Of a DNA stretch of 64,000 nucleotides, positions 1 to 62,342 are shown in pieces (within the stretch, counting starts at the first letter, position 1; the number at the start of each line of letters is the position of its first letter). This DNA is from a plasmid. A program made the translations under genes and the position numbers. The notes beneath the pieces are model-generated. The model ran no database searches and was not told the origin of the DNA. It saw nothing but the letters and a program-made list of their open reading frames with translations. The stretch lies in sequence record NZ_CP106961.1. One strand, written 5' to 3'.

Positions 1-1708
1 GGGGTGGATTGCGCTCAAGAACCGTAATCTCAACATGAACGCCCTCATGTCGATTGCGGTCACGGGTGCCATGTTGATCGGCCACTGGCCCGAAGCGGCA
101 ATGGTGATGGTACTGTTCGCGCTGGCCGAGGTAATCGAAGCCAAATCGCTGGATCGCGCTCGTAACGCTATCCGTGGCCTGCTCGACCTGACCCCGGAAC
201 AGGCCACGGTACAGCAGGCTGACGGCACATGGCGCGAGGTGGGCGCCAAGCAAATCACCATCGGCGCCCGCGTCCGGGTCAAACCAGGTGAGCGCATCGC
301 CCTTGATGGTGAGGTGCTGGAAGGCCGCTCTGCCGTCAACCAAGCCCCGATCACGGGTGAAAGCCTCCCGGTCGAAAAATCCCCCGGTGATTCGGTGTTC
401 GCTGGCACGATCAACGAATCCGGCTCGTTCGAGTACCGCGTCACCGCCTTGGCCAACAACTCCACTTTGGCCCGGATCATTCACGCGGTAGAGGCTGCGC
501 AAGGTAGTCGTGCGCCGACTCAGCGTTTTGTCGATCAGTTCGCCCGCTGGTACACCCCCGTTGTATTCGGCGTTGCCATCGCCGTCGCGTTGTTGCCGCC
601 GCTGTTCATGGGTGCGGCATGGCTCGACTGGATCTACCGTGCATTGGTTCTGCTGGTGGTCGCCTGCCCGTGCGCACTGGTGATCTCTACACCGGTCAGC
701 ATCGTCAGCGGCCTGGCCGCCGCCGCCCGCCACGGCATTCTCATCAAAGGTGGCGTCTATCTGGAAGAAGGCCGCAAGCTGCGCTGGCTGGCTCTGGACA
801 AGACCGGCACGATCACGCACGGCAAGCCCGCACAGACCGACTTTGTCACATGGGGCAATGCACTCGCCTCGGACAGCCGCAGCATCGCTGCCAGTCTGGC
901 GGCCCGCTCGGACCATCCTGTATCCAAGGCGGTGGCACAGGCCGCGCAGACGGACGGGGTTGCCTTGCTCGACGTGGCCGAATTCAACGCGCTGCCCGGT
1001 CGGGGTGTGCAAGGCCAAATCAACGGTGCGACCTACCATCTGGGCAACCACCGGATGCTCGAAGAGCTGGGGCAGTGCACACCAGAGCTGGAGCAGCGCA
1101 TCGCTGCGCTGGAAACCGCTGGCAAGACCGTCGTGATGTTGGTAGGCGCAAAGGCGGTACATGCCTTATTCGCCGTAGCGGACACCATCAAGGACAGCAG
1201 CAGGACCGCCATCGCCGAGCTGCACGCACTGGGCATCAACACCATGATGCTGACCGGCGACAACCCCCATACGGCACAGGCCATTGCCGCACAAGCCGGA
1301 ATCGACCGTGCGCAAGGCAACCTACTCCCAGATGACAAATTGCGCGAAGTGGAGCAACTGGCCCGAAGCGGCAAGGTTGGCATGGTCGGTGATGGCATCA
1401 ACGATGCCCCGGCCTTGGCGCGTGCGGACATCGGCTTTGCAATGGGAGCGGCTGGCACAGATACCGCAATCGAGACCGCCGACGTGGCCCTGATGGACGA
1501 CAACCTGCGCAAGATTCCGACCTTCGTGCGCCTGTCGCGTGCGACGGCGCAGGTGCTGATGCAAAACATTGTGCTGGCCCTTGGCATCAAGGCAGTATTT
1601 CTGGTGCTGACCTTCACGGGTCAAGCGACCATGTGGATGGCGGTGTTTGCTGATATGGGGGCCAGCTTGCTCGTCGTTGGCAATGGCTTGAGGCTGTTGC
1701 GCAAATGA
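1..1708 (+). CDS. cadA: Heavy-metal translocating P1B-type ATPase (Cd/Zn/Pb type), 5'-partial at window edge
   Basis: The translation carries a CPC motif (VVACPCALVISTP), the DKTGTIT phosphorylation site and the GDGINDAPAL hinge. The frame is open from position 2, so the gene continues upstream of the window. The segment is GC-rich. Confidence 0.85.
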   Translation, partial: GWIALKNRNLNMNALMSIAVTGAMLIGHWPEAAMVMVLFALAEVIEAKSLDRARNAIRGLLDLTPEQATVQQADGTWREVGAKQITIGARVRVKPGERIALDGEVLEGRSAVNQAPITGESLPVEKSPGDSVFAGTINESGSFEYRVTALANNSTLARIIHAVEAAQGSRAPTQRFVDQFARWYTPVVFGVAIAVALLPPLFMGAAWLDWIYRALVLLVVACPCALVISTPVSIVSGLAAAARHGILIKGGVYLEEGRKLRWLALDKTGTITHGKPAQTDFVTWGNALASDSRSIAASLAARSDHPVSKAVAQAAQTDGVALLDVAEFNALPGRGVQGQINGATYHLGNHRMLEELGQCTPELEQRIAALETAGKTVVMLVGAKAVHALFAVADTIKDSSRTAIAELHALGINTMMLTGDNPHTAQAIAAQAGIDRAQGNLLPDDKLREVEQLARSGKVGMVGDGINDAPALARADIGFAMGAAGTDTAIETADVALMDDNLRKIPTFVRLSRATAQVLMQNIVLALGIKAVFLVLTFTGQATMWMAVFADMGASLLVVGNGLRLLRK

Positions 1709-1909
1709 GCTGGAAATTCTTTCTCTACGACTGGGGTGGTCTGAACATCGCGTTGTTCCAAGCCATCAACATGAGCACACCTGCAGCGCTGGAACCGCTG
1801 GCATCGTTCTTCAACCTTGTGATAGGCAACTACTGGACTGCACCACTGATGCTCTTGGCGATGTGGGGATGGTCAAAGTCGGCACCTGACCCAACGCGGG
1901 CCGATGCCA
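1705..1909 (+). CDS. Hypothetical membrane protein, 3'-truncated by IS26
   Basis: The ORF overlaps the cadA stop (atgA) and begins with a hydrophobic stretch, MSWKFFLYDWGGLNIALFQAIN... The native sequence ends at the IS26 left inverted repeat at position 1910, so the 3' part is missing. Confidence 0.3.
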
Positions 1910-2845
<936 letters not shown>

Positions 2846-2862
2846 GGAAAAGGAGGTGTTCA

Positions 2863-3228
2863 ATGAGCGCCTACACAGTGTCCCGGCTGGCCCTTGATGC
2901 CGGGGTGAGCGTGCATATCGTGCGCGACTACCTGCTGCGCGGATTGCTACGGCCGGTCGCGTACACCACGGGCGGCTACGGCTTGTTCGATGACACCGCG
3001 TTGCAACGGCTGCGCTTTGTACGGGCTGCCTTCGAAGCGGGTATCGGCCTGGACGCACTGGCGCGGCTGTGCCGGGCGCTGGATGCTGCGGACGGTGACG
3101 GTGCGTCTGCGCAGCTTGCCGTGTTGCGGCAACTCGTCGAGCGTCGGCGCGAGGCCCTGGCCAGCCTCGAAATGCAACTGGCCGCCATGCCAACCGAACC
3201 GGCACAGCACGCGGAGAGTCTGCCATGA
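2863..3228 (+). CDS. merD: MerD co-regulator (MerR family)
   Basis: The product [44 protein letters not shown]... matches the Tn21/Tn501 MerD signature. An AGGAGG ribosome-binding site lies 7 nt upstream. Confidence 0.9.
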
Positions 3229-3461
3229 ACAGCCCAGAGCACTTGCCGTCTGAGACGCACAAACCGATCACCGGCTACTTGTGGGGCGCGCTGGCCGTGC
3301 TCACCTGTCCCTGCCATTTGCCGATTCTCGCCATTGTGCTAGCCGGCACGACGGCCGGCGCGTTCATCGGGGAGCACTGGGGTATTGCAGCCCTCACGCT
3401 GACCGGCTTGTTTGTCCTGTCTGTGACGCGGCTGCTGCGGGCCTTCAAGGGAAGATCATGA
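3225..3461 (+). CDS. merE: MerE mercury transporter
   Basis: The 78-aa product has two transmembrane segments and a CPC motif ([11 protein letters not shown]). It overlaps the merD stop by 4 nt. Confidence 0.9.
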
Positions 3462-3526
3462 CCGCTTCCCAGCCAGCCGAGAGTGGGCAGCTTTGAGCTT
3501 CGCTACCAATCTGGAGGAGTACCACC

Positions 3527-3739
3527 ATGAACGCAAACGCCCCGAACACTGCCAGTTGCACCACCTGCTGCGTATGCTGCAAAGAAATTCCGCTCGATGC
3601 CGCCTTCACCCCGGAAGGCGCGGAATACGTCGAACATTTCTGCGGGCTGGATTGCTATGAACGCTTCCAGGCACGCGCCAAGGCCGCGACAGAATCTGAC
3701 ATTGCGCCTGTCCCTGGCGGTTCGCAGCCGTCAGATTGA
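3527..3739 (+). CDS. Small Cys-rich protein (urf2-like ORF downstream of merE)
   Basis: The 70-aa product carries a CTTCCVCC cluster and an [10 protein letters not shown] motif. A GGAGG ribosome-binding site precedes it, and it sits between merE and res/tnpR as in Tn21-family mer transposons. Confidence 0.5.
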
Positions 3740-3868
3740 GGCATACCCTAACCTGATGTCAGATGCTTGGCGCAAAGCACGTCAGAATAGAGTTGTAGTT
3801 TGTATTTATTGACACAAGCCGCCAAGGGTAATGGATTTCATCCTGACACTTTTACCTTTGGAGGCACC
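3740..3868 (+). promoter_or_regulatory. Probable res (resolution) site region upstream of tnpR
   Basis: This is a positional inference. Tn21-subfamily transposons place res immediately upstream of tnpR. The stretch is an AT-richer non-coding interval between urf2 and tnpR. Confidence 0.4.
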
Positions 3869-4426
3869 TTGCAAGGTCAACGCATTGGCTATATCCGCGT
3901 CAGCAGCTTCGACCAGAACCCTGATCGGCAACTGGAGCAAATCGAAGTCGGTAAGGTATTCACCGATAAGGCTTCCGGCAAGGACACGCAACGTCCCGAA
4001 CTTGAAAGGCTGCTGGCCTTTGTGCGCGAGGGCGACACCGTGGTGGTGCACAGCATGGACAGGTTGGCACGCAATCTCGATGACCTGCGCCGCATCGTTC
4101 AGGGGCTGACACAACGGGGCGTGCGGATGGAGTTTGTCAAAGAAGGGCTGGCGTTCACCGGCGATGACTCACCGATGGCCAATTTGATGCTGTCGGTCAT
4201 GGGGGCTTTTGCGGAGTTCGAGCGCGCACTGATCCGCGAACGCCAGCGCGAGGGAATCGTGCTGGCCAAGCAGCGCGGTGCCTACCGGGGACGAAAGAAA
4301 TCGCTGAACAGCGAACAAATTGCCAAGTTGAAACAGCGAGTCGCGGCAGGCGATCAAAAAACCTTGGTGGCCCGTGACTTCGGCATCAGTCGCGAAACCT
4401 TGTACCAGTACCTGCGGGAAGACTGA
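3869..4426 (+). CDS. tnpR: Serine resolvase TnpR (Tn21/Tn501 subfamily), probable TTG start
   Basis: The sequence QGQRIGYIRVSSFDQNPDRQLE...HSMDRLARNLDDLRRIV has the resolvase catalytic-Ser region and a C-terminal helix-turn-helix. A GGAGG site lies 5 nt upstream of the TTG at 3869. The ORF-track entry 3800.. is a 5' over-extension. Confidence 0.85.
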   Translation: MQGQRIGYIRVSSFDQNPDRQLEQIEVGKVFTDKASGKDTQRPELERLLAFVREGDTVVVHSMDRLARNLDDLRRIVQGLTQRGVRMEFVKEGLAFTGDDSPMANLMLSVMGAFAEFERALIRERQREGIVLAKQRGAYRGRKKSLNSEQIAKLKQRVAAGDQKTLVARDFGISRETLYQYLRED

Positions 4427-4428
4427 TC

Positions 4429-5393
4429 ATGCCGCGCCGCTCAATCCTGTCCGCCACCGAGCGCGAAAGCCTGCTGGCACTACCAGATGCCAAAGACGAA
4501 CTGATACGGCACTACACGTTCAACGAAACCGACCTATCGGTGATCCGCCAGCGTCGCGGCGCTGCGAATCGATTGGGCTTCGCCGTGCAGCTTTGCTACT
4601 TGCGATTCCCTGGCATCTTCTTGGGCATCGATGAGCCTCCGTTTCCGCCCCTGTTGCGCATGGTGGCCGCACAACTCAAGGTGCCGGTGGAAAGTTGGAA
4701 CGATTACGGCCAGCGCGAGCAGACGCGGCGGGAGCACTTGGTCGAGCTGCAAACGGTGTTCGGGTTCAAGCCCTTCACCATGAGTCACTACCGGCAGCCG
4801 TGCATACATTGACCGAGCTGGCCTTGCAGACCGATAAAGGGATTGTGCTGGCCAGCACCCTTGTCGAAAACCTGCGGCGGCAGAGCATCATCCTGCCCGC
4901 CATGAATGCCATCGAGCGCGCGAGCGCCGAGGCCATCACCCGTGCCAACCGGCGTATTTACGCGGCGTTGACCGATTCTTTGTTATCGCTCCACCGTCAG
5001 CGCCTGGACGAACTTCTCAAGCGCAAGGACGGCAGCAAATTGACGTGGCTGGCATGGCTGCGCCAGTCGCCCGTCAAGCCGAACTCTCGGCATATGCTTG
5101 AACACATCGAGCGCCTCAAGGCTTGGCAGGCGCTTGACCTTCCCGCAGGCATCGAGCGACAAGTTCACCAGAACCGCCTGCTCAAGATCGCCCGTGAGGG
5201 TGGGCAGATGACGCCTGCCGATCTGGCAAAGTTCGAGATGCAACGACGCTATGCCACTCTGGTTTCGCTGGCCATTGAAGGTATGGCCACCGTCACCGAC
5301 GAAATCATCGACCTGCACGACCGCATCATTGGCAAACTATTCAACGCCGCCAAGAACAAGCATCAGCAGCAGTTTCAGGCTTCCGGCAAAGCC
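4429..5393 (+). pseudogene. tnpA: Tn21-family transposase tnpA, N-terminal third (frameshifted near 4795)
   Basis: The product MPRRSILSATERESLLALPD...FQASGKA is split across two frames. A 1-nt loss at the QAVQ position (caggcc becomes cagcc) causes the frameshift. Homology to TnpA stops exactly at 5393. Confidence 0.8.
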
Positions 5394-6698
5394 CGCTGTG
5401 TCGGTGTAGTGCTCCTCGATCCGCAAGTCCGACTCGTGGTACAGCAGGCCATCGAGCACATAGGTTGAATCACGCACGCCGACGTTGACTACCTTGGTGC
5501 TGAAGGGCGCGTACTGGTCGGAGATATGGGTATAAAACGTCCGGCCTGGACTGCTTCCATACTTCGGGTTGATATGCCCGGTGCTCTCCGCTTTGCTGCC
5601 GGTTCTGAAATTTTGGCCATCCGACGATGACGTGGTGCCATCGCCCCAGTTTCCGGCAAAGGATTGCCGGAACTGCGCGTTGACCAGTTCGGCCAGCGCC
5701 GTTGAGTACGTTTCATCCCGGATGTGCCAGGCTTGCAGCCACGACAGCTTGGCGTAAGTCGTGCCTGGGCAGGACTCGGCCATCTTGGTTAGCCCGAGAT
5801 TGATGCCATCAGCCAGGATCGTCGTCAGCAGCAAGGTTTTGTCCTTGGCCGTGTCGCCGGTCTTCAGATGCGTGAAATGCCGGGTGAAGCCTGTCCACTC
5901 ATCAACTTCCATCAGCAGTTCGGTAATCTTGACGTGTGGCAGCAGCATCGCCGACTGGTCGATTAGGGCTTGTGCGGTCTCCGGCACCGCCGCGTCCAGC
6001 GGCGTGATCTTCAGGCCGGACTCGGTAATGATGGCATCCGGCAGATCATTGGCCGCCGCCATGCGGTTGACGGTGGCAAGCTGCTGTTCCAGCAATGCCA
6101 GTCGGTCGTGCAAATACTGATCGCAATCGGTGGCCACTGCCAGCGACAATTCGTTGGCCAGCTTCAGAGTAGCGAACTTCTCGGCCGGCACCAGGTACTC
6201 ATCAAAGTCCTTGAACTGGCGCGAACCCTGCACCCAGACATCGCCTGATCGCAGCGCGTTCTTTAGCTCTGACAGGGCGCACAGCTCGTAGTAGCGCCGG
6301 TCAATGCCATCGTCCGTGAGCACCAGTTTCGCCCAGCGTGGCTTGATGAATGCGGTCGGCGCGTCGGCGGGCACCTTGCGGGCGTTGTCGCTGTTCATGC
6401 CGCGAAGCACCTCGATGGCATCGAGTACGCCCTTGGCGGCTGGTGCCGCCCGTAACTTAAGTACGTCCAGGAACTGCGGCGCGTAGCGGCGCAACGTGGC
6501 GTAGCTTTCACCGATGCGATGCAGAAAGTCGAAGCTCTCCGGCTGCGCGAGCTTTTGCGCCTCCGTGACGCTGGCGGCGAAGGTATCCCACGGCATTACG
6601 GCCTCGATGGCGGCGAACGGATCGCCGCCGCTCTGTTTGGCTTCCAGCAAGGCTTGGCCGATGCGGCCATACATCCGCACCTTGTCATTGATCGCCTT
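5394..6698 (-). pseudogene. tnpA: Tn21-family tnpA central segment, present in inverted orientation
   Basis: The minus-strand translation (KA)[20 protein letters not shown]...[10 protein letters not shown] is the contiguous TnpA middle, about residues 325-760. It is bounded by the forward N- and C-terminal pieces. Confidence 0.8.
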
Positions 6699-7397
6699 AC
6701 CGATCATGTCTTCGGCCTGATGCACCTACTGGGCTTCCGATTCGCGCCACGTATCCGAGACCTGGGCGACACCAAGCTATTCATCCCAAAGGGCGATGCC
6801 GCCTATGACGCGCTCAAGCCGATGATTAGCAGCGACCGGCTGAACATCAAGCAGATACGCGCCCATTGGGATGAAATCTTGCGGTTCGCCACTTCGATCA
6901 AGCAGGGTACGGTGACGGCCTCGCTGATGTTGCGCAAGCTCGGCAGCTATCCGCGTCAGAACGGACTGGCCGTTGCACTGCGCGAGCTGGGGCGCATTGA
7001 GCGCACGTTGTTCATACTGGATTGGCTGCAAAGCGTGGAGCTGCGCCGCCGCGTGCAGGCCGGACTCAACAAAGGCGAGGCGCGCAACGCGCTGGCCAGG
7101 GCGGTGTTCTTCAACCGACTGGGCGAAATCCGCGACCGCAGTTTTGAGCAACAACGCTACCGGGCCAGCGGCCTCAATCTGGTAACGGCGGCCATCGTGC
7201 TTTGGAACACGGCCTATCTGGAACGGGCAACCAATGCTTTGAACGGGCACGGCAAACCGGTAGACGAGACGCTGTTTCAATACCTGTCACCGCTGGGGTG
7301 GGAACACATCAATCTGACCGGCGATTACCTCTGGCGCAGCAGCACCAAGGTCGGCGCAGGCAAGTTCAGACCGTTGCGACCACTGCCACCGGCTTAA
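6699..7397 (+). pseudogene. tnpA: Tn21-family tnpA C-terminal segment
   Basis: The product [33 protein letters not shown]...[12 protein letters not shown] is the TnpA C-terminus. Its stop lies inside the terminal inverted repeat. Confidence 0.8.
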
Positions 7398-7430
7398 CGT
7401 GCTTTATTTTCCGTTTTCTGAGACGATCCC
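7393..7430. repeat. 38-bp terminal inverted repeat of a Tn21-subfamily transposon (tnpA end)
   Basis: The sequence CTTAACGTGCTTTATTTTCCGTTTTCTGAGACGATCCC is the reverse complement of the canonical GGGGTCGTCTCAGAAAACGGAAAATAAAGCACGCTAAG, with 2 mismatches. Confidence 0.85.
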
Positions 7431-7693
7431 TTATGAGCCTGCTGTCACCCTTTGACGTGGTGATATGGATGACGGATGGCTGGCCGCTGTATGAATCCCG
7501 CCTGAAGGGAAAGCTGCACGTAATCAGCAAGCGATATACGCAGCGAATTGAGCGGCATAACCTGAATCTGAGGCAGCACCTGGCACGGCTGGGACGGAAG
7601 TCGCTGTCGCTCTCAAAATCGGTGGAGCTGCATGACAAAGTCATCGGGCATTATCTGAACATAAAACACTATCAATAAGTTGGAGTCATTACC
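7431..7693 (+). mobile_element. IS1 3'-terminal fragment (insB' plus right inverted repeat), 263 bp
   Basis: It encodes the InsB C-terminus ...[48 protein letters not shown]...HYQ* and ends with the IS1 inverted repeat ...AAGTTGGAGTCATTACC. It abuts the Tn21-family inverted repeat directly. The ORF-track entry 7202..7678 is a chimeric read-through. Confidence 0.85.
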
Positions 7694-7833
7694 CTTTTTT
7701 CAACTTCTGATGGAAGCGAGTGATTGAACTCATACATTAATGTTTTCCCACGAAGTCTTTTTTCAGGTAAGCCTTCGCACATATCGGTAAATAGCTTGCC
7801 TGCTTTTATTTTTTCTGTCATCGACATGTTCAT
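7694..7833 (-). pseudogene. lacA: lacA 5' fragment (galactoside O-acetyltransferase), truncated by IS1
   Basis: The minus-strand translation MNMSMTEKIKAGKLFTDMCEGLPEKRLRGKTLMYEFNHS... matches the LacA N-terminus. It lies directly downstream of lacY, with a REP-like GCCGGATAAGGCGCTCGCGCC element between them. Coding stops at the IS1 end at 7693. Confidence 0.75.
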
Positions 7834-7898
7834 TTTTAACATTCCGTCCTGATAAGTTGGTCGGATAAGGCGCTCGCGCCGTATCCGACATTAATTTC

Positions 7899-9197
<1,299 letters not shown>

Positions 9198-9203
9198 TTA
9201 TTA

Positions 9204-12399
<3,196 letters not shown>

Positions 12400-13482
12400 T
12401 CACTGCCCGCTTTCAAGTCGGGAAACTTGTCGTGCCAGCTGCATTAAGGAATCTGCCAACGTGCGGGGAGAGGTGGTTTGCGTATTGGGCGGTAGGGTGG
12501 TTTTTCTTTTCACCAGTGAGACGGGCAACAGCTGATTGCTCTTCACCGCCTGGCCCTGAGAGAGTTTCAGCAAGCGGTCCACGCTAGTTTTCCCCAGCAG
12601 GCGAAAATCCTGTTTGATGGTGGTTAACGGCGGGATATAACACGAGCTGTCTTCGGTATCGTCGTATCCCACTACCGAGATATCCGCACCAACGCGCAGC
12701 CCGGACTCGGTAATAGCGCGCATTGCGCCCAGCGCCATCTGATCGTTGGCAACCAGCATCGCAGTGGGAACGATGCCCTCATTCAGCATTTGCATAGTTT
12801 GTTGAAAACCGGACATGGCACTCCAGTCGCCTTCCCGTTCCGCTATCGGATGAATTTGATTGCGTGTGAGATATTTATGCCAGTCCGCCAGACGCAGACG
12901 CGCCGAGACAGAACTTAATGGACCGGCTAACAACGCGATTTGCTGGTGACCCAATGCGATCAGATGCTCCACACCCAGTCGCGTACCGTCTTCATGGGAA
13001 AAAATAATACTGTTGATGGGAGTCTGGTCAGAGACATCAAGAAATAGGGCCGGAACATTAGCGCAGGCAGCTTCCACAGCAATGGCATCCTCGTCATCCA
13101 GCGGATAGTTAATGATCAGACCACTGACGCGTTGCGCGAGAAGGTTATGTACCGCCGCTTTACAGGCTTCGACGCTGCTTCGTTCTACCATCGACACCAC
13201 CACGCTGGCACCCAGTTGATCGGCGCGAGATTTAATCGCCGCGACAATTTGCGACGGCGCGTGCAGGGCCAGACTGGAGGTAGCAACGCCAATCAGCAAC
13301 GACTGTTTGCCCGCCAGTTGTTGTGCCACGCGGTTGGGAATGTAGTTCAGCTGCGCCATCGCCGCTTCCACCTTTTCCCGCGTTTTCGCAGAGACGTGGC
13401 TGGCCTGGTTCATCACGCGGGAAACGGTCTGATAAGAGACACCGGCATACTCTGCGACATCGTATAGCGTTACTGGTTTCAC
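12400..13482 (-). CDS. lacI: Lac repressor LacI (GTG start)
   Basis: The 360-aa product (V)KPVTLYDVAEYAGVSYQTVSRVMNQASHVSAKTREKVEAAM... is LacI-like and the GTG start matches E. coli lacI. The ORF-track entry 12400..13578 is over-extended. Confidence 0.95.
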   Translation of the reverse strand: MKPVTLYDVAEYAGVSYQTVSRVMNQASHVSAKTREKVEAAMAQLNYIPNRVAQQLAGKQSLLIGVATSSLALHAPSQIVAAIKSRADQLGASVVVSMVERSSVEACKAAVHNLLAQRVSGLIINYPLDDEDAIAVEAACANVPALFLDVSDQTPINSIIFSHEDGTRLGVEHLIALGHQQIALLAGPLSSVSARLRLADWHKYLTRNQIHPIAEREGDWSAMSGFQQTMQMLNEGIVPTAMLVANDQMALGAMRAITESGLRVGADISVVGYDDTEDSSCYIPPLTTIKQDFRLLGKTSVDRLLKLSQGQAVKSNQLLPVSLVKRKTTLPPNTQTTSPRTLADSLMQLARQVSRLESGQ

Positions 13483-13978
13483 ATTTACCACCCTGAATTG
13501 ACTCTCTTCGGGTGCTATCATGCCATACCACGAAATGTTTTGCGCCATTCGGAGGGGGCACGCCGAAGTGAGATTCAAAATGCCGACGTCAGTTTACAGG
13601 TGGGTAATGATACCAACGTGTTGATTTCGTATTTTCACTGACACCAGGATCATCCTGATGTTACAAGGATTGAATGACCACTACAAAAGCACTTCGCCGG
13701 GCTCATGAGGACATGGAAAATAAAAATGTGAACGGGAAAATTGTTTTTTCAGGGTTCTGATGAACAGGCCTGTCAGAGTAAAAAAAGATTCGGGTTCAGC
13801 ACAATGCTGAATTCTGTCTGGCTATAGAGTAAGAATCGTACCGGAATTGAGCATTTACCCTCAGTACCTGCGGATGAAAAAGCAGTCTGCCCTGACATAC
13901 TGAACAATCCCTTCTCATAAGATGCCTCTCTTTTGCTGTTTAAAGAGCTGAGCAGTCCGGGCGGAGACTGACCTCGTT

Positions 13979-13998
13979 CCGCTTTCCAAGCGACCCCC
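13979..13998. repeat. Partial (about 20 bp) Tn3-family inverted-repeat terminus remnant
   Basis: The sequence CCGCTTTCCAAGCGACCCCC resembles the outer 20 bp of the complete inverted repeat 120 bp downstream, in the same orientation. Confidence 0.4.
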
Positions 13999-14080
13999 TT
14001 GTTGAAAGTGCGACAAAAGAGATAGGGCGAATGACTATACTTCGCTCATAGCTGCCCGTCATGCCAGCTCAAAAAATAGG

Positions 14081-14118
14081 CTTAACGTAGGATATTTTCC
14101 GTTTTCCAAGCGGCCCCC
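14081..14118. repeat. Orphan 38-bp Tn3-family inverted repeat (same family as the repeats at 50376 and 62305)
   Basis: CTTAACGTAGGATATTTTCCGTTTTCCAAGCGGCCCCC is the reverse complement of GGGGGCCGCTTGGAAAACGGAAAATATCCTACGTTAAG. It has 1 mismatch to the repeat at 50376-50413. The GGGG outer end sits at 14118, so the element interior points toward lacI. Confidence 0.7.
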
Positions 14119-14175
14119 TTTTACCCCCTGCACAGTGCAAACACGACCAAAGGGTTTATTGAAGGAGTTGGGATC

Positions 14176-19202: not shown

Positions 19203-20117
19203 ATGAATGTGATTAAAAAAATATGCGAAGTGATTGATGGAGAGTATGTCTGTGACATTGATATCAGTGTGGAAGAATGGAAAACTTTATTAACAAATGA
19301 TAAAGTTTTTGACACAAAAAGTATTGCAGCGTTAAAAAAATGGTTTATTGAGCCAAATCATTCCTGCACATGCTTCGATATTGGTAAGAAGTACGACCTG
19401 CACAGCATGAGTGCTAATGGAGTCATAAACGGACTGGGTGGCAGAGTTCAAAAAGAACTTGGTAGATTCGAGGTTAAAGGTGTCGGAAATATCGCATCCG
19501 GTACAAAATTCATTACCGTAATGAAGAGTAAAGAAATCGGCGGAAAACCCAAAAGAAACTTATGGACAATTCGTGAGGAACTTGTTCAGGCAATTAACGA
19601 ACTGGATTTTTTTGGTACAACAGAAATGGCCAGCAGTGAGTATTACTCTGACGATGAGTTGATCAATGCCATAGAGAAAAGTAATATCTTTGACAACGTT
19701 CAGACGTTTGAATATACAGGGGAAGCCAAACCAAAGAAAAATGCAATAGAAGTAAAAAATGGCCTCTCGTATCCCAGGAGTAAAGGCGTATCCCAAAATG
19801 CGCTGAATAAAGCAGGTTACAGATGTGAAGTCGATAGTGACCACCCAACATTCAGAAGGCGAAATTCATCCTTAAATTACACAGAACCTCATCACATTGT
19901 ACCTATGTCCAGGCAAGATGCTTTTGACACATCTCTTGATGTTGAAGAAAATATCATATCTCTGTGTTGCAATTGCCATAAACAAATTCACCTTGGTCAG
20001 GGTTATGAAGATATGCTGAAAGAAATATACACTGCGCGAAAAAGGTTATTAAAAAAAGTTGGTATTGATATATCACTGGAAAACTTGATTCTTTATTACA
20101 AAATGGAAAGTAAGTGA
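19203..20117 (+). CDS. HNH-nuclease-domain protein (McrA-like C-terminal HNH; N-terminal domain unassigned), 304 aa
   Basis: The C-terminus YRCEVDSDHPTFRRRNSSLNYTEPHHIVPMSRQDAFDTSLDVEENIISLCCNCHKQIHLG shares the McrA-like HNH spacing (EPHH, N, LC.NCH..IH). The first 200 residues show no motif I recognise. The gene is very AT-rich compared with its flanks and has an AGGGGA ribosome-binding site. Confidence 0.7.
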   Translation: MNVIKKICEVIDGEYVCDIDISVEEWKTLLTNDKVFDTKSIAALKKWFIEPNHSCTCFDIGKKYDLHSMSANGVINGLGGRVQKELGRFEVKGVGNIASGTKFITVMKSKEIGGKPKRNLWTIREELVQAINELDFFGTTEMASSEYYSDDELINAIEKSNIFDNVQTFEYTGEAKPKKNAIEVKNGLSYPRSKGVSQNALNKAGYRCEVDSDHPTFRRRNSSLNYTEPHHIVPMSRQDAFDTSLDVEENIISLCCNCHKQIHLGQGYEDMLKEIYTARKRLLKKVGIDISLENLILYYKMESK

Positions 20118-20424
20118 GATTCAAACGAGAGTGATACCTTCGTTTTATTGGTCGGGATGAACAGCAGATGATGTTTCCGGCAAGTATCGGGTCCAGAAAC
20201 TTTCTGTTAAAAAAGAGGTAAAAGTAGTCTTGAGCCCTGACTGCGAATTGCCATTGCGCATGACCAGAGAACAGGACGAACCCCTGCCAAACCCAGGCAT
20301 GAGAAACACCTTTAAAACATAGACTTAATTAAAATCAGCAATTCCCATCGAAATAATAAGCAAGCAGAATTGGCTCAGGTGAATTTCACTCGGTGCAGTG
20401 CATGCGTTGGGGGGGGTAAAAGGA

Positions 20425-20448
20425 AAAACCCGAAATGAATCGGGTTTT
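20425..20448. terminator. Bidirectional terminator hairpin between the HNH gene and the DUF305 gene
   Basis: AAAACCCGaaatgaatCGGGTTTT is flanked by A- and T-tracts. A second hairpin, GTTCCCGtgcCCGGGAAC, lies at 20469-20488. Confidence 0.5.
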
Positions 20449-20524
20449 GATTAATTAACGATTAACAGGTTCCCGTGCCCGGGAACACTCTGACTGTACG
20501 CGCAATATATTATTTCCGCAATCA

Positions 20525-20875
20525 TTATTTTTGATTACCAAGCCATTTATTCATCTGCTCAATTTCACCTTTTTGAGCTTTAATGATGTCCTGCGCGAGC
20601 TTTCTCATTTCCGGATCTTTTCCGTATTTTAGCTCGGTCTCAGCCATTGCTATTGCCCCTTCATGGTGTGCTACCATGCCTTTCGCAAAAGCCTTGTCGG
20701 GATCGGACTCTTTTACAGCGGCCATCATTTTGTCATGCATACCTTTCATGCCGGACATATATTCCTGTGACGATGCCGATGAGGATATATCTGACATTTT
20801 CATTTCTGAATGTTCTGCGGAAATCGCTGGCAGGGAAAACATCAGTATAACAAAAAGCGAATTTGTGATTTTCAT
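20525..20875 (-). CDS. DUF305-family periplasmic (metal-binding) protein
   Basis: The 116-aa product has a signal peptide and paired MxxHHxxAIxMA / HHEGAIAMAE motifs typical of DUF305 copper-associated proteins. Confidence 0.75.
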   Translation of the reverse strand: MKITNSLFVILMFSLPAISAEHSEMKMSDISSSASSQEYMSGMKGMHDKMMAAVKESDPDKAFAKGMVAHHEGAIAMAETELKYGKDPEMRKLAQDIIKAQKGEIEQMNKWLGNQK

Positions 20876-40608: not shown

Positions 40609-40856
40609 TACCTATTTCCTTCAATAATGCACTATTGCCATATCTCCAAGTGACTTCAAGATACAGAATTCAGAGTTGAGTCACTTGGGCATAGTATCCA
40701 ATATATTGGCTAACAACACAGTAAATAAAACTGGGTGGACGTATGAGTGTTTAATTTTCACTCACAAGATTTAGACCTGAACTCAAGACCAAGGAGCGAG
40801 CGGTAATGCTGCCAACTTACTGATTTAGTGTATGATGGTGATTTTGAGGTGCTCCA

Positions 40857-41132
40857 GTGGCTTCCATTTCCATCAGATGTCCTTCCTGCTCCGCTACTGA
40901 AGGCGTGGTGCGTAACGGCAAAAGCACTGCCGGACATCAGCGCTATCTCTGCTCTCATTGCCGTAAAACATGGCAACTACAGTTCACTTACACCGCCTCT
41001 CAGCCCGGTACGCACCAGAAAATCATTGATATGGCCATGAATGGCGTCGGATGTCGCGCCAGTGCACGCATTATGGGCGTTGGCCTCAACACGGTTTTAC
41101 GTCACTTAAAAAACTCAGGCCGCAGTCGGTAA
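40857..41132 (+). CDS. insA: IS1 InsA
   Basis: The product is identical to the insA of the copy at 34515. Confidence 0.9.
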
Positions 41133-41554
41133 CCTCGCGCATACAACCGGGCAGTGATGTGATTGTCTGCGCTGAAATGGACGAACAGTGGGGCTACGTC
41201 GGTGCTAAATCACGTCAGCGCTGGCTGTTTTACGCGTATGACAGGATACGGAGGACGGTTGTGGCGCACGTCTTCGGTGAACGCACTCTGGCCACACTGG
41301 AGCGTCTTCTGAGCCTGCTGTCGGCCTTTGAGGTCGTGGTATGGATGACGGATGGCTGGCCGCTGTATGAATCACGCCTGAAGGGAAAGCTGCACGTTAT
41401 CAGCAAGCGTTACACTCAGCGCATTGAGCGACATAACCTGAATCTGAGACAACATCTGGCAAGGCTGGGACGGAAGTCACTGTCGTTCTCAAAATCGGTG
41501 GAGCTGCATGACAAGGTCATCGGGCATTATCTGAACATAAAACACTATCAGTAA
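41051..41554 (+). CDS. insB: IS1 InsB (expressed as InsAB' by -1 frameshift)
   Basis: The product ...[73 protein letters not shown] matches IS1 InsB. Confidence 0.9.
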
Positions 41555-41569
41555 GTTGGAGTCATTACC

Positions 41570-42030
41570 AAAAACTCAGGCCGCAGTCGGTAACCTCGCG
41601 CATACAACCGGGCAGTGATGTGATTGTCTGCGCTGAAATGGACGAACAGTGGGGCTACGTCGGTGCTAAATCACGTCAGCGCTGGCTGTTTTACGCGTAT
41701 GACAGGATACGGAGGACGGTTGTGGCGCACGTCTTCGGTGAACGCACTCTGGCCACACTGGAGCGTCTTCTGAGCCTGCTGTCGGCCTTTGAGGTCGTGG
41801 TATGGATGACGGATGGCTGGCCGCTGTATGAATCACGCCTGAAGGGAAAGCTGCACGTTATCAGCAAGCGTTACACTCAGCGCATTGAGCGACATAACCT
41901 GAATCTGAGACAACATCTGGCAAGGCTGGGACGGAAGTCACTGTCGTTCTCAAAATCGGTGGAGCTGCATGACAAGGTCATCGGGCATTATCTGAACATA
42001 AAACACTATCAGTAAGTTGGAGTCATTACC
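41570..42030 (+). mobile_element. 5'-truncated IS1 copy (IS1 positions about 307-768) directly abutting the preceding complete IS1
   Basis: The sequence restarts at AAAAACTCAGGCCGCAGTCGG, which is an internal IS1 position. It runs to a right inverted repeat ending at 42030. The ORF-track entry 41620..42015 is an InsB C-terminal fragment. Confidence 0.85.
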
Positions 42031-50375: not shown

Positions 50376-50413
50376 GGGGTCCGCTTGGAAAACGGAAAAT
50401 ATCCTACGTTAAG
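50376..50413. repeat. Left 38-bp inverted repeat of the ars/chrA Tn3-family transposon
   Basis: The repeat was read directly from the sequence. Confidence 0.85.
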
Positions 50414-50504
50414 CCTGTTTCTTTAGCTGGCATTACAAAAAGCGAGCGTCTGCATGGTACAGACAGACACCCGAATACGATAAAAATGAGACGAAAAAAA
50501 CAGG

Positions 50505-50930
50505 TTACTTAACCCGCTTCCCCGTTTCGTCAATGACCTTTTCGCCGTCCTCTTTGGTAAACGCTCCTTTCTGACCTTCAGGTAGAATATCCAGCACTAT
50601 TTCTGAAGGGCGGCAAAGACGAGTGCCAAGCGGCGTAACGACTACCGGCCGATTAATCAGGATCGGATGTTGAAGCATAAAATCAATCAACTGCTCATCA
50701 CTGAATTTCTCTTCATCAAGGCCCAGGTGTTCATAAGGCTCAACATTCTTACGCAGCAATGCACGCACCGTAATTCCCATATCTGAAATAAGTTTAATCA
50801 GATCATCACGGGTCGGTGGCGTATCGAGATAATAAATAATGGTCGGTTCGTTACCGCTGTTACGGATCATCTCCAGCGTGTTGCGTGAAGTGCCGCAGGC
50901 CGGGTTGTGATAGATGGTAATGTTGCTCAT
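50505..50930 (-). CDS. arsC: Arsenate reductase ArsC (glutaredoxin-coupled)
   Basis: The 141-aa product MSNITIYHNPACGTSRNTLEMIR... has the Cys12 catalytic loop. Confidence 0.92.
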   Translation of the reverse strand: MSNITIYHNPACGTSRNTLEMIRNSGNEPTIIYYLDTPPTRDDLIKLISDMGITVRALLRKNVEPYEHLGLDEEKFSDEQLIDFMLQHPILINRPVVVTPLGTRLCRPSEIVLDILPEGQKGAFTKEDGEKVIDETGKRVK

Positions 50931-50942
50931 ATCTTTATCTCA

Positions 50943-52232
50943 TTACAAAGTGATGGAAAGCCGCAACGCCAGCGCGGCCAGAGTGACAAACAGCACGGGC
51001 AGAGTCATGATAATGCCGGTGCGGAAGTAATAACCCCAGGTGATCGTTATATTTTTCCGGGCAAGCACATGCAGCCAAAGCAGGGTTGCCAGACTGCCAA
51101 TCGGGGTGATTTTCGGGCCTAAATCGCAGCCAATCACGTTGGCATAAATCATTGCCTCTTTGACGACGCCAGTCGCCGTACTCCCGTCAATCGACAGCGC
51201 GCCAATCAGCACCGTCGGCATATTGTTCATCACCGACGACAGGAACGCGGTCAGGAAGCCGGTGCCGAACGTTGCTGCCCATAACCCCTTTTCTGCCAGC
51301 AGGTTCAGTACACCAGACAGATACTCCGTGAGCCCGGCATTGCGCAGGCCATAGACCACCAGGTACATGCCCAGCGAAAAAATCACGATCTGCCATGGCG
51401 CACTGCGCAGGACTTTCCCTGTGTTGATGCCATGACCTCTTTTCGCCACGATAAACAGTACTGCTGCGCCAGCAGCTGCTATCGCGCTGACAGGGATCCC
51501 CAGCGGCTCCAGAACGAAGAAACCGACAAGCAGCAATAACAGGACAATCCAGCCCGCCCTGAACGTTGCCGCATCCTTTATCACACTGGCAGGCGTCTTC
51601 AGCAGCGAAACGTCATACGTTGCCGGAATATCCCTGCGGAAGAAGAGATGCAGCATGATCAGCGTGGCCGCAATCGCTGCCGCATCCACGGGGATCATAA
51701 CGGAGGCGTACTGCGTAAAGCCCAGATCGAAGAAGTCCGCCGAGACGATATTCACCAGGTTAGAAACAATGAGTGGCAGGCTGGCCGTATCTGCAATAAA
51801 TCCTGCAGCCATGACAAAGGCCAGTGTCGTGCCCTGGCTGAACCCCAGTGCGAGCAGCATCGCAATCACAATCGGCGTCAGGATCAGCGCGGCGCCATCA
51901 TTGGCGAACAAAGCAGCAACAGCGGCACCGAGCAAGACTATCCAGGTGAACAGCAGGCGGCCACGTCCGTTACCCCAGCGGGAGACGTGCAGTGCGGCCC
52001 ACTCAAAGAAGCCGGACTCATCGAGCAGCAGGCTGATGATGATGACCGCAATAAATGCCGCTGTCGCGTTCCAGACGATATTCCAGACAACGGGAATATC
52101 AGCGATATGGATGACACCGGTTCCCAGCGCCAGCACAGCCCCGATACTCGCGCTCCAGCCAATACTCAGGCCTCTGGGTTGCCAGATCACCAGTACCAGC
52201 GTCAGTAAAAATATACTCCCTGCCAAAAGCAT
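50943..52232 (-). CDS. arsB: Arsenite efflux pump ArsB
   Basis: The 429-aa product, starting at [19 protein letters not shown], is colinear with R773 ArsB. The ORF-track entry is over-extended by 26 codons. Confidence 0.92.
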
Positions 52233-52276
52233 CTCAGACCCCATCATATATGATTTTGTAAATATGTTTTCCTGCC

Positions 52277-52597
52277 TCAGCAGGAGGTGCAGGCTGATTT
52301 GTCCAGCCATTCACGTACATCCTCGCGCAGACACTGCCAGGTCGTCGTGATTGTCTCTGCTGCCCACGCCGGAATATGGGGTGACAGACGATAGTGGATC
52401 CATTTGCCTTCCCGACGGTCAAGAACCAGATCAGCCTCGCGAAGGATAGCCATATGTCGCGAAATTTTGGGCTGCGATTCGGAGGTGGCAACGCAGATAT
52501 CGCAGACGCACAATTCTCCGGACTCCCGGAGAAGCATGACGATGGCTAGCCGTGTTTCATCCGACAGGATTTTGAAAAGCTGAACAGGTTGTAGCAT
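52277..52597 (-). CDS. arsR: Arsenic-responsive repressor ArsR
   Basis: The product has the ELCVCDL metal-binding motif in an ArsR/SmtB helix-turn-helix. Confidence 0.9.
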
Positions 52598-52682
52598 TTT
52601 TCACTCCGTTCCCTTTAGAATACACATATGTTAGATCATATATATTAACTTTAAAATCACCTGTTCTCTCCGGAGGAGAAAA

Positions 52683-53381
52683 ATGGAACAATTTCCAGCC
52701 CTGAATACTGACTGTTTTGATCAACATATTGCCGAACGTCTGCACCTGCAGGAGCCCCCACGGATTCTGATCCTGTATGGCTCAGTAAGGGAGCGCTCCT
52801 ACAGTCGCTTTGCCGCGGAGGAAGCAGGTCGCCTGCTGACGGCGATGGGCGCGGAGGTGAAATTCTTTAACCCCTCCGGTTTACCCCTGCCGGATGATGC
52901 CCCGGATACGCACCCTAAAGTCTCCGAGCTACGCGGGCTGGTCAGATGGTGTGACGGGATGGTGTGGAGCTCGCCGGAACGGCACGGGGCTATGAGCGCG
53001 GTGATGAAGGCGCAGATCGACTGGATACCGTTGAGTGAAGGCGCGGTTCGTCCTTCGCAGGGCAAGACACTTGCAGTGATGCAGGTTTGCGGCGGTTCGC
53101 AGTCCTTCAATGCCGTGAACCAGATGCGCATTCTGGGCCGCTGGATGCGGATGTTCACAATTCCCAACCAGTCCTCGGTGGCGAAAGCCTGGCAGGAATT
53201 TGATGAGAACGGAAGGATGAAGCCGTCCTCATGGTACGACCGTATCGTAGATGTCGCAGAGGAGTTGTTTAAAATTACGTTGCTGCTCAGGGGACAAACC
53301 AGCTACCTTGCAGATCGCTACAGCGAACGAAAAGAGAGTCATCAGGAACTTTCGTACCGCGTCAATCAGGAAAAAATATAA
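52683..53381 (+). CDS. arsH: NADPH-dependent FMN reductase ArsH
   Basis: The 232-aa product has the flavodoxin-like motif [12 protein letters not shown] and is transcribed divergently from arsR. Confidence 0.88.
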
Positions 53382-53509
53382 CGCCTTCTGATCGTATAAA
53401 TACACACCATGAGCGTTTTCACAAAGTCTCCTTCTGCCAGGCAGCGGATAATCTTACATGTGTCTGTCGTTTTCAGAAGACGGCAGACCGGACTAAAACC
53501 ATAGGCATA

Positions 53510-53815
53510 TCATTTGCCTTCAACAAGTTCACCGAACAGCTCTTTCACCCTGTTTCTGGCGTCCGTTAGCGCTATGTGCCCTTGTCCGGTGATTTCATAT
53601 ACTCGCCGGATTCGTCGACCGGCCTGAACATGTCGTGAAGTGAGATACCCCTTCTTTTCCATACCGTGCAGCATCGGATACAGGGTACCCGGGCTGAGTT
53701 GATAACCGTGGTGTCGCAATTCCTCAATGATGCCCAGACCAAAGACGGGTTCTTTGGCTGCATGATGCAGGATGTGCAAACGGATCATCCCGCCGTAAAG
53801 ATCTTTGTCGGTCAC
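53510..53815 (-). CDS. PadR-family transcriptional regulator
   Basis: The 101-aa product is a winged helix-turn-helix (LSPGTLYPMLHGMEKKGYL). Confidence 0.8.
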   Translation of the reverse strand: MTDKDLYGGMIRLHILHHAAKEPVFGLGIIEELRHHGYQLSPGTLYPMLHGMEKKGYLTSRHVQAGRRIRRVYEITGQGHIALTDARNRVKELFGELVEGK

Positions 53816-53825
53816 GCCCGGAACC

Positions 53826-55031: not shown

Positions 55032-55206
55032 GGTCAGATCCTGATTGCTGGTTTTATTGGCTATTATAATCGAATTTCGTTATCGAAATTCGATTATAAT
55101 AGCCACTGCTCCCTGTGGATAGAATGATGTTTCATGCTTTCCAGATGTTTACTTCAAGAACAGTTTCAACTGCCTGGCCAGTTATGGGCTTTATTCACAT
55201 TCAGTA

Positions 55207-55785
55207 TTATTGCTGTCCTGCTTTTACCCGGAGTATGGTTTGCCGGGTGGTATTAAATTCTCTGGCAACCGCACTGATACTGGCCCCGGAATTAAGGCGC
55301 TCTGACACTATTTTTTTTTGCTCCTCGCTCAAGATGGGCGGACGACCGAAGCGTTTCCCGGCTGATCTTGCCCGAGAAATCCCTGAATGTGTGCGTTCAA
55401 TCAGCAGATCCCTCTCAAACTCAGCCACAGCTGAAATCACCTGCATCGTCATTCTCCCGGCAGCGCTGGTCAAATCAACACCTCCGAGCGCCAGGCAGTG
55501 AACACGAATATCTGACGAAGCCAGTTGCTCAACAGTTTTTCTGATATCCATGGCATTACGCCCAAGACGATCCAGCTTGGTGACTATCAGCACATCACCA
55601 TTTTCCATGCGATCAAACAGCCGGATAAATCCGGGACGTTCGCTGGCAGCAACCGAACCACTTATATGTTCCTCAATCAGTCGCTGGGGTCTGATGGCAA
55701 AACCCGCCGCTTCAATTTCCCTTCGCTGATTCTCGGTGGTTTGCTCAAGAGTCGAAACCCGGCAGTAAGCAAAAACTCGTGACAT
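55207..55785 (-). CDS. tnpR: Serine resolvase TnpR of the ars/chrA transposon
   Basis: [25 protein letters not shown]... has the resolvase catalytic Ser and a C-terminal helix-turn-helix. It is divergent from tnpA, with the res region expected at 55786-55944. Confidence 0.85.
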
Positions 55786-55944
55786 AGGAAACTTTCCGTA
55801 CGAAATGGATGTCCGAATTATAACGTATGTACGAAACAAATTTCGCTGACTTTCGGACATATTGTTTGCGAGGCGTACGAAACCGACCGGTTTCGGTCAG
55901 TGTAAAGCGATAACCAAAACGAACTATATGCAGAGGAAGCATTT

Positions 55945-56400: not shown

Positions 56401-56487
56401 GGGTAAGCGGATTAAATGGTTGATCTTACCTTTGCATGAGAGTGAGACAGACCGGCATCTCATCGGATTATCTGGTTGATGCTTCAC

Positions 56488-56910: not shown

Positions 56911-56969
56911 CGGATTCTTTACTCTATTGACCTTATAGTAGCTTTATAGTTTTAAATGGTACCACAACA

Positions 56970-57887: not shown

Positions 57888-57890
57888 ATA

Positions 57891-58403: not shown

Positions 58404-58424
58404 CACCTACGCCTATACAACACC

Positions 58425-59714: not shown

Positions 59715-59780
59715 GGGTGGTATCAGATTGATGGGGTGAAGGTGCCCCATCAACCATTAAATCCGTATACCCACAATAAG

Positions 59781-62309: not shown

Positions 62310-62342
62310 CGTAGGATATTTTCCGTTTTCCAAGCGGACCCC
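62305..62342. repeat. Right 38-bp inverted repeat of the ars/chrA Tn3-family transposon
   Basis: CTTAGCGTAGGATATTTTCCGTTTTCCAAGCGGACCCC is the right-end repeat. Confidence 0.85.

Follow-up and report, generated by a model that had tools for sequence, protein, structure and literature searches.

Is the transposase gene of this plasmid element a mosaic of related genes, a reversible switch, an artefact of assembly, or a single gene broken in place? The question is raised by a tnpA gene which, in the 64,000-nucleotide stretch of plasmid sequence NZ_CP106961.1 analysed here (the window), is read in three pieces, the middle one on the opposite strand. The original prediction, made from the letters alone, described a Tn21-family tnpA that carries a 1-nt frameshift and whose interior is exactly inverted, and attributed the pieces to two related alleles and not to an in-situ flip. 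The features on which the analysis bears are the following.

1910-2729, minus strand: IS26, 820 bp, with both 14-bp terminal repeats; the only IS26 in the window.
3730-3868, plus strand: res region upstream of tnpR; imperfect palindrome read from the sequence.
3869-4426, plus strand: tnpR, intact serine resolvase of 185 aa with a TTG start; Pfam Resolvase (1.7e-38) and HTH_7.
4429-5389, plus strand: N-terminal piece of tnpA, codons 1-320 and the first two bases of codon 321; Pfam DUF4158.
5384-5392: left junction, CGGCAAAGC; left arm CGGCAA followed by the reverse-complemented right arm AGC, with the crossover in AA 5388-5389.
5390-6696, minus strand: middle piece of tnpA, inverted; 1307 nt, from the third base of codon 321 to the first base of codon 757.
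6694-6702: right junction, GCCTTACCG, reverse complement CGGTAAGGC; the reciprocal chimera, with the crossover in TT 6697-6698.
6697-7397, plus strand: C-terminal piece of tnpA, from bases 2-3 of codon 757 to the stop.
7393-7430, minus strand: right 38-bp terminal inverted repeat, GGGATCGTCTCAGAAAACGGAAAATAAAGCACGTTAAG; overlaps the tnpA stop codon.
7431-7700, plus strand: IS1 3' fragment adjoining the right inverted repeat; repeat family D1, with the window's other IS1 copies.

The organization is that of a Tn3-family element: res lies upstream of tnpR, the serine resolvase gene is upstream of and co-directional with tnpA, and the large DDE transposase (~990 aa) combines DUF4158 and DDE_Tnp_Tn3, tnpA being present as a pseudogene only. 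Its assignment to the Tn21 subgroup is well founded, as the reconstructed protein is 87.7% identical to TnpA of R100 Tn21 and the inverted repeat matches at 36 of 38 positions. Site I of res reads GTCAGATTGAGGC-AT-ACCCTAACCTGAT (3730-3757), with the crossover dinucleotide AT at 3743-3744. The resolvase gene is intact, as had been proposed; at the DNA level it shows 100% identity with the gene annotated as WP_004213590.1 in the copies L001-L005. The window starts inside cadA and the left end of the element is off-window. Its present left side consists of a truncated cad module (cadA 35-1708, lspA' from 1705) joined by IS26 to the 3' end of merA, which is followed by merD, merE and urf2 (2730-3739); this side has matches in both the cad and the mer contexts of relatives.

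The right inverted repeat is intact and is the only 38-bp repeat of the element within the window. That the element has a single inverted repeat, as first described, is however most likely an effect of the window edge: two relatives carrying the same inversion (L003 and L004) are complete 7.7-kb transposons with both inverted repeats, the left one being GGGGTCGCCTCAGAAAACGGAAAATAAAGCACGCTAAG. Their flanks (…caagata / ttatgag…) show no 5-bp duplication, and the original insertion site was therefore rearranged. Within the window, a truncated IS1 forms the right flank; its junction with the inverted repeat, which marks the outer boundary of the element, recurs in L003 and L004. IS5075 interrupts the right inverted repeat in the Enterobacter mori copy (L005), and IS4321 does so in an intact copy from Klebsiella sp. 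(L007), as is known for the Tn21 subgroup; the target preference of IS5075 is given in PMC6848029.

The breakpoints were determined by comparison with the intact copy of K. pneumoniae plasmid pKCTC2242 (L001). BLASTN aligned window positions 3743-5389 with L001 3001-4648 on the plus strand, 5384-6702 with L001 5961-4643 in reverse, and 6694-7430 with L001 5953-6689 again on the plus strand. Read base by base against the intact gene, the sequence runs forward to 5387, has AA 5388-5389 in common with both arrangements and is inverted from 5390; it stays inverted until 6696, has TT 6697-6698 in common with both and runs forward from 6699. Both comparisons confirm the exact internal inversion and the frameshift, and they identify the three pieces as parts of one Tn21-subgroup gene. 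The exchange is exactly reciprocal, with no base gained or lost at either junction. The right junction had been placed correctly at 6698/6699; the left one lies 4-6 nt to the left of the position first given, 5393/5394. Contrary to the initial reading, the endpoints do not fall between codons: they lie within codon 321 (AAG) and codon 757 (TTT).

Uninterrupted identity at the junctions is limited to 2 bp (AA/TT). In the intact gene these lie within an imperfect inverted homology of 9 bp, CGGCAAGGC versus the reverse complement CGGTAAAGC, with 7 of 9 matches. By our estimate, about one random reciprocal join in six would show a 2-bp identity by chance, and this identity thus discriminates nothing. 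Over 14 positions, the left site matches the right site (L versus R') at 7, an ordinary score, and about 21% of the AA/TT site pairs in the gene (3746 of 18172) match as well as or better than the actual pair. The homology at the junctions is at chance level, and the inverted homologies initially seen at the breakpoints carry no weight.

The frameshift is due to the loss of one A in codon 123 (CAA): the intact CGGCAAGCC has become CGGCAGCC in the window, the surviving A being 4795. This 1-nt deletion at 4795/4796 leads to a stop at 4810-4812. Flipping the middle piece back and restoring one A after 4795 yields a 989-aa protein without any difference from WP_004213592.1, the intact transposase found on hundreds of Klebsiella and betaproteobacterial replicons. 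After this correction only two synonymous substitutions, at 5282 and 7008, distinguish the region from res through tnpR and tnpA to the inverted repeat from that of pKCTC2242.

Profile searches gave a consistent picture. DUF4158 was found on the forward N-terminal open reading frames 4429-4812 and 4695-5468, DDE_Tnp_Tn3 profile positions 1-181 on the minus-strand frame 5337-6725, and profile positions 181-389 on the forward frame 6519-7397. The inversion thus splits the DDE catalytic domain at profile position 181, leaving its first half in the middle piece and its second half in the C-terminal piece. Owing to the exact internal inversion and the 1-nt frameshift, tnpA should be unable to encode a transposase, and either lesion alone is predicted to abolish it. 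The functional tnpA needed for autonomous transposition would thus be missing, with the reading frame lost at codon 123 and the DDE domain split. The element had been called immobile; 'non-autonomous' fits better, since it could still be resolved or recombined at res and might be mobilised in trans.

The distribution of the rearrangement is informative. Identical inversion, frameshift and private SNP are present in seven separately deposited plasmids, six from Leclercia and one from E. mori. These represent all occurrences of the inverted structure, at 100% identity, among 72,556 PLSDB plasmids, and they come from at least five sources: environmental Leclercia from Bethesda (two), shower isolates (two), a rabbit, maize rhizosphere and the KPC plasmid of E. 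mori. The inverted structure is absent from 5,426 E. coli genomes. Junction 40-mers had no exact match in species-representative genomes or in JGI metagenomes; a colinear control 40-mer, scanned on the species-representative collection only, gave 20 matches. Copies with at least 99% identity occur on more than 450 plasmids; the name 'TnAs2', attached to a near-identical colinear copy in one GenBank record, is that record's own. In the literature on internal tnpA inversions in Tn21-type elements, on Leclercia plasmids and on TnAs2, we did not find this rearrangement described. The SNP 7008T, found in inverted copies only, points to a single origin. The private markers occur in eight copies (the seven from the database and the window), each of them inverted, and every colinear copy lacks 7008T; nothing therefore suggests a switch.

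Two kinds of left-hand module, cadR-cadA-lspA and mer-urf2, precede the inverted copies. Homology to the relatives in the cad context begins exactly at 3743, whereas relatives in the mer context match further upstream, so that the switch coincides with the AT centre of res site I. This fits the proposal that the remnant is a substrate for resolvase or homologous recombination. The exchange of left modules among inverted copies could have occurred by homologous recombination in their common 1.6 kb, and not by resolvase.

Taken together, these data indicate that the gene is very probably a transposase pseudogene from a metal-resistance transposon of the Tn21 subgroup (Tn3 family), produced by a single reciprocal inversion in place that was accidental and has no function. 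In one ancestral copy of the widespread intact allele (WP_004213592.1), about 1.31 kb was inverted between AA in codon 321 and TT in codon 757, and the same copy dropped one A in codon 123; res, tnpR and the right inverted repeat are unchanged. Both lesions have become fixed in a small lineage of Leclercia/Enterobacter plasmids, which inherits them as a pair. The inversion itself was probably a one-off event of illegitimate, homology-independent breakage and rejoining, and it probably serves no function. Its endpoints share no more than a few bases, bear no signature of a recombination site and occur in one lineage with a private SNP. A conservative exchange fits best, because no base was lost at either junction although only 2 bp of uninterrupted identity were available; subunit exchange by topoisomerase or gyrase, or a recombinase acting on fortuitous sites, are candidate agents.

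Alternatively, replication could have switched template at one arm and back at the other, inverting the spacer. The position of both junctions in the 7/9 imperfect inverted repeat is consistent with such an event, which we regard as possible but rather unlikely: the spacer between the arms is 1.3 kb long, thousands of other pairs in the gene match at least as well as this repeat, and both switches must have hit the same 2-bp register for the product to be perfectly reciprocal.

A serine recombinase, whether TnpR, the second resolvase encoded in the window (55207-55860) or a host invertase, could also have cut at the central AA, either once or as a reversible switch of tnpA. The conservative reciprocal exchange without loss of bases and the identical AA central dinucleotides in inverted orientation, a requirement of serine recombinases, agree with this explanation, as does the presence of two resolvase genes in the window. 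Resolvases normally require full res sites in direct repeat. For likeness to site I of res, the left site is in the top 3.7% of gene positions and the right site is unremarkable, in the top 19%; neither is convincingly res-like, and as a pair these ranks give no support to res-site-I-like inversion sites. Since the flanking homology is also at chance level, we consider the action of such a recombinase improbable. A programmed switch is further contradicted by the occurrence of a single orientation in the lineage, by the lack of specific inverted sites beyond the imperfect 9-mer, and by the frameshift, which means that flipping back would not restore function.

A related proposal is that TnpR or the second resolvase acted at cryptic AA-centred pseudo-sites in tnpA and thereby made the inversion, and perhaps also the deletion at CCGGCAAG. 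The deletion site (CCGGCAAGcCG) matches the left inversion site (CCGGCAAGgCG) at 10 of 14 positions in register. Among mock AA/TT sites only 2.6% reach this score, which hints weakly at a common sequence-specific cause; when the choice of sites and orientations is allowed for, the link is unconvincing, and we would give this proposal slightly less credit still. If true, it would mean that a resolvase had naturally inactivated the transposase it is partnered with, while the plasmid retained the res/tnpR module.

The idea of a mosaic, with a middle piece imported in reverse from another Tn21-family member, rested on the tripeptide GKA, whose codons at the two junctions differ in their wobble bases (GGC AAA GCC and GGT AAG GCG). 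A single reciprocal crossover in the gene's own imperfect inverted repeat reproduces this difference: the parents in the intact gene are GGC AA|G GCG and, on the complement, GGT AA|A GCC, and one crossover inside AA makes the two reciprocal chimeras. Across its 1307 nt the middle piece shows 100% identity with L001 4649-5955 read as the reverse complement, the same allele that the flanking pieces match at 99.8-99.9%. All pieces thus match one allele at 99.8-100%, which refutes the two-allele idea. Compared with Tn21 piece by piece, they are similarly diverged (80.5, 83.1 and 84.5% identity). A mosaic origin is very improbable. Elsewhere in the window there is no reciprocal tnpA fragment; a different tnpA of the Tn3 family, 74-76% similar, is all that resembles the gene there. 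An inversion mediated by IS26 or IS1 was rejected, both junctions being direct tnpA-to-tnpA joins with no IS at either. An assembly mis-join hiding a colinear gene can practically be dismissed, since seven separately deposited complete plasmids carry both junctions at 100% identity together with the same frameshift and SNP, and since repeat collapse cannot create junctions that share only 2 bp.

The in-place inversion is a real but ordinary gene wreck that reveals no new mechanism or function. It is nevertheless of practical use, as the pair of junctions provides a clean lineage marker for the cad/mer-lac module in Leclercia/Enterobacter plasmids, including a KPC plasmid. It is also an annotation hazard: gene callers will make a minus-strand 'Tn3 transposase' of 462 aa out of 5337-6725 and add two fragments on the plus strand, as if the single flipped pseudogene were three genes or a mosaic. 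Finally, it shows that a transposon remnant without transposase still swapped its cargo side at or near res.

Among known elements, the closest comparison is with the intact cadR-cadA-lspA-res-tnpR-tnpA transposon of large Klebsiella plasmids (pKCTC2242, NC_017541; pK2044, NC_006625; pLVPK, NC_005249), of which a mer-carrying version exists on Klebsiella sp. plasmid pRHBSTW-00464_3. The res, tnpR and right inverted repeat are identical in DNA sequence to those of the pKCTC2242 copy, and the cadA-lspA cargo is found at the start of the window. Unlike the Klebsiella copies, the window has 1307 nt in the middle of tnpA inverted, codon 123 one base short, and the cargo side rebuilt with IS26 and a mer fragment. 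As in Tn21 of R100, mer/urf2, res, tnpR, tnpA and the 38-bp inverted repeat follow each other co-directionally, with the inverted repeat and TnpA similarities given above, and relatives share the Tn21-subgroup trait of IS4321 or IS5075 in the inverted repeat. In contrast to Tn21, tnpA is 80-85% and res-tnpR 74% identical in DNA sequence, the element lacks an integron and its transposase is dead. The inversion resembles those of Hin/hix and Gin/gix in being conservative, with exchange limited to a central dinucleotide, AA here as in hix, and with a serine recombinase gene adjacent; unlike them, it has no recognisable sites and no sign of both orientations, and neither orientation gives a functional gene. 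Inversions between short inverted repeats are known from experiments with repeats of 12-23 bp, whereas the present one has no more than 2 bp of uninterrupted identity and a perfectly conservative product. Like illegitimate inversions, it is a one-off event, with few bases in common between its endpoints and no mobile element at its junctions.

The transposition module and its neighbours in the window are arranged as follows:

35-1708, cadA, a P-type ATPase gene
from 1705, truncated lspA (lspA')
1910-2729, IS26, connecting the mer part to truncated lspA and cadA
2730-3739, 3' end of merA, then merD, merE and urf2, upstream of res
3730-7430, Tn3-family, Tn21-subgroup transposition module
3730-3868, res region, with site I (GTCAGATTGAGGC-AT-ACCCTAACCTGAT) at 3730-3757
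3869-4426, tnpR (Pfam Resolvase and HTH_7 domains), with the disrupted tnpA downstream
7393-7430, 38-bp terminal inverted repeat
7431-7700, truncated IS1 adjoining the right inverted repeat, followed by a lacA remnant, lacY, lacZ and lacI

The block 7431-14119 ends close to a solo inverted repeat that belongs to another Tn3-family element (14070-14119). Its lac genes are missing from plasmid pLA-109, where the IS1 fragment is present.

A megablast search of 72,556 plasmids with 3700-7700 returned a full-length 100% match in seven records and a colinear copy, 99.8% identical, in hundreds. The copy of K. pneumoniae pKCTC2242 (L001), annotated with recombinase WP_004213590.1 and the 989-aa Tn3-family transposase WP_004213592.1, was taken as the intact reference. 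BLASTN aligned the window to it in three segments:

3743-5389, forward, L001 3001-4648
5384-6702, reversed, L001 5961-4643
6694-7430, forward, L001 5953-6689

The Pfam placement agrees: DUF4158 is found on the forward N-terminal ORFs, positions 1-181 of the DDE_Tnp_Tn3 profile on the minus-strand ORF 5337-6725, and positions 181-389 on the forward ORF 6519-7397. The predicted inversion within tnpA is therefore real, with corrected coordinates, and it splits the catalytic domain.

At the future junctions the intact gene carries an imperfect 9-bp inverted repeat, with 7/9 bases matching. Its left arm is CGGCAAGGC (L001 4643-4651, codons G320-K321-A322) and its right arm GCTTTACCG (L001 5953-5961; reverse complement CGGTAAAGC). 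The window reads CGGCAAAGC at the left junction (5384-5392) and CGGTAAGGC on the other strand of the right junction (6694-6702); a crossover inside the central AA gives this reciprocal pair of chimeras. The gene thus runs forward to 5387, shares AA at 5388-5389, is inverted over 5390-6696, shares TT at 6697-6698 and is forward again from 6699. Neither junction gained or lost a base. The crossovers fall within codons 321 (AAG) and 757 (TTT), and not between codons as had been proposed.

We returned 5390-6696 to its forward orientation and compared the restored sequence with L001. Over res-tnpR-tnpA-IR the two differ only by one missing A and two substitutions, at 5282 and 7008, and the inverted piece of 1307 nt shows no difference. 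The missing A, after 4795 in codon 123 (CGGCAAGCC to CGGCAGCC), is the single-nucleotide deletion expected near that position. Once it is restored, the 989-aa translation is identical to WP_004213592.1, so both substitutions are synonymous.

The original prediction had also derived the pieces from two tnpA alleles, which does not hold, as all three match one allele at 99.8-100%. The differing spelling of the G-K-A codons, which had argued for two alleles, is exactly what one crossover produces: exchange inside AA of GGC AA/G GCG and, on the complementary strand, GGT AA/A GCC yields GGC AAA GCC and GGT AAG GCG. When aligned separately to true Tn21 (R100), the three pieces are evenly divergent (80.5, 83.1 and 84.5% nucleotide identity; 85, 88 and 90% amino-acid identity). 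What took place was a simple in-situ flip.

A query spanning the left junction (5310-5470) matched over its full length in exactly seven plasmids, carried by Leclercia sp. LSNIH1 and LSNIH3, by L. adecarboxylata from two showers, a rabbit and maize rhizosphere, and by Enterobacter mori (a KPC plasmid). It had no match in 5,426 complete E. coli genomes. Neither one-genome-per-species representatives nor JGI metagenomes contained the exact junction 40-mers; the colinear 40-mer, a control run on the genome collection only, occurred in 20 species representatives, mostly Betaproteobacteria. Several independent assemblies agree on the junctions, which rejects an assembly artefact; as the other collections gave none, only one small lineage of plasmids has the rearrangement. 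The base 5282T is common to colinear copies in Burkholderia, Paraburkholderia, Pandoraea and E. roggenkampii, while 7008T is found only in the inverted copies and in none of the colinear ones. Inversion, frameshift and this private SNP together define one origin. There is no sign that the inversion acts as a switch, and the frameshift keeps tnpA dead whichever way the middle piece points.

How the inversion arose was approached through its junctions. Every AA and every TT of the intact gene served as mock sites (18,172 pairs, scored over 14 positions with 6-nt flanks). The real pair scores 7/14, and 3,746 mock pairs do as well or better, some reaching 12-13/14; junction homology is thus not what picked the sites. 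Neither inversion site resembles res site I significantly; they rank in the top 3.7% and 19% of positions. No IS lies at either junction, and a search for a reciprocal tnpA fragment elsewhere in the 64-kb window found none. The exchange is reciprocal and conservative, with 2 bp of uninterrupted identity, and we infer that it was probably a one-off illegitimate event. As nothing was lost at either junction, the best fit is a concerted break-and-rejoin reaction with covalent enzyme-DNA intermediates. Candidate agents would be subunit exchange by topoisomerase/gyrase, or a serine recombinase acting on fortuitous AA-centred sites; the window holds two resolvase genes (3869-4426 and 55207-55860). 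Around the same AA, the deletion site (4786-4800; CCGGCAAGcCG, intact CCGGCAAGCCG) and the left inversion site (5380-5395; CCGGCAAGgCG, CCGGCAAGGCG) match in register at 10/14 positions, a score reached by only 2.6% of mock sites. This likeness is suggestive at most and may be coincidence.

The plasmids pLA-109 and QDSM01 p5 of L. adecarboxylata carry the inverted tnpA inside a complete 7.7-kb element, in the order left IR-cadR-cadA-lspA-res-tnpR-tnpA*-right IR. In LSNIH1, the E. mori plasmid and the window, it is mer-urf2 that precedes the same right-hand portion. With one origin and two left modules, replacement of the left module must postdate the inversion; it went either by resolvase at res or by homologous recombination in the shared 1.6 kb. 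Between cad (...GTCCGGTTAAGCT/AT...) and mer (...GTCAGATTGAGGC/AT...) relatives, the change in homology falls precisely on the AT centre of res site I (boundary 3742/3743, AT at 3743-3744). A boundary at this centre is the classical footprint of resolvase-mediated module exchange. These comparisons fit the prediction that the remnant is a substrate for resolvase or homologous recombination, but the boundary itself may predate the inversion; both cargos are also known with the intact allele. Because cadA-lspA' is still present in the window, upstream of IS26, this backbone originally had the cad context and gained the mer fragment later. The apparent single inverted repeat is a window-edge effect, since the left one would lie upstream of position 1. 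The stretch 1-3739 (cadA-lspA'-IS26-merA 3' end-merD-merE-urf2) is absent as a single piece from PLSDB, each of its two halves being a 100% match to Leclercia plasmids. The arrangement points to a cad transposon in which a mer transposon was nested, or with which it recombined, before an IS26 deletion.

Other damaged elements were observed. A second Tn3-family metal-resistance transposon (50376-62343; inverted repeats 50376-50436 and 62294-62343) carries arsB, chrA, an FMN reductase gene and the resolvase gene at 55207-55860 (minus strand). Its tnpA is also dead, an ISL3-family element of about 3.3 kb with cation-efflux and lspA passenger genes separating an N fragment (55945-56406, residues 1-146) from a C fragment (59736-62309, residues 152-984). 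At 40801-42030, an IS1 copy runs straight into a 461-bp partial tandem repeat of its own 3' part, with 100% identity between 41109-41408 and 41570-41869. Salmonella p33836-1 holds, at 3730-7403 of the retrieved locus, another decayed Tn21-like tnpA with internal deletions, placed inverted repeat to inverted repeat with a second, oppositely oriented copy; this is a type of wreck unlike the window's.

Literature searches returned no description of this tnpA inversion, and nothing indicates a function for it. The lesion is private, occurs in a known transposon type and belongs to a known general kind (illegitimate inversion); it is useful as a lineage marker and to be kept in mind as an annotation caveat. 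In the retrieved E. mori locus (11777-12781 and 19792-20796) and in an intact Klebsiella sp. copy (9778-10782), this element's inverted repeat is occupied by IS5075 or IS4321; the second E. mori insertion apparently lies in the solo repeat on the far side of lacI. Both repeats are thus shown to be still recognised as targets of the Tn21 type, and insertion of IS4321 or IS5075 in the inverted repeat of relatives is a likeness to the Tn21 subgroup (PMC6848029). The element also shares with Tn21 its gene organisation, 36/38 matches in the inverted repeat and 87.7% identity between the TnpA proteins. These features bear out the proposed subgroup membership and, at the sequence level, place the element as a member of the Tn21 subgroup and not as Tn21 itself.
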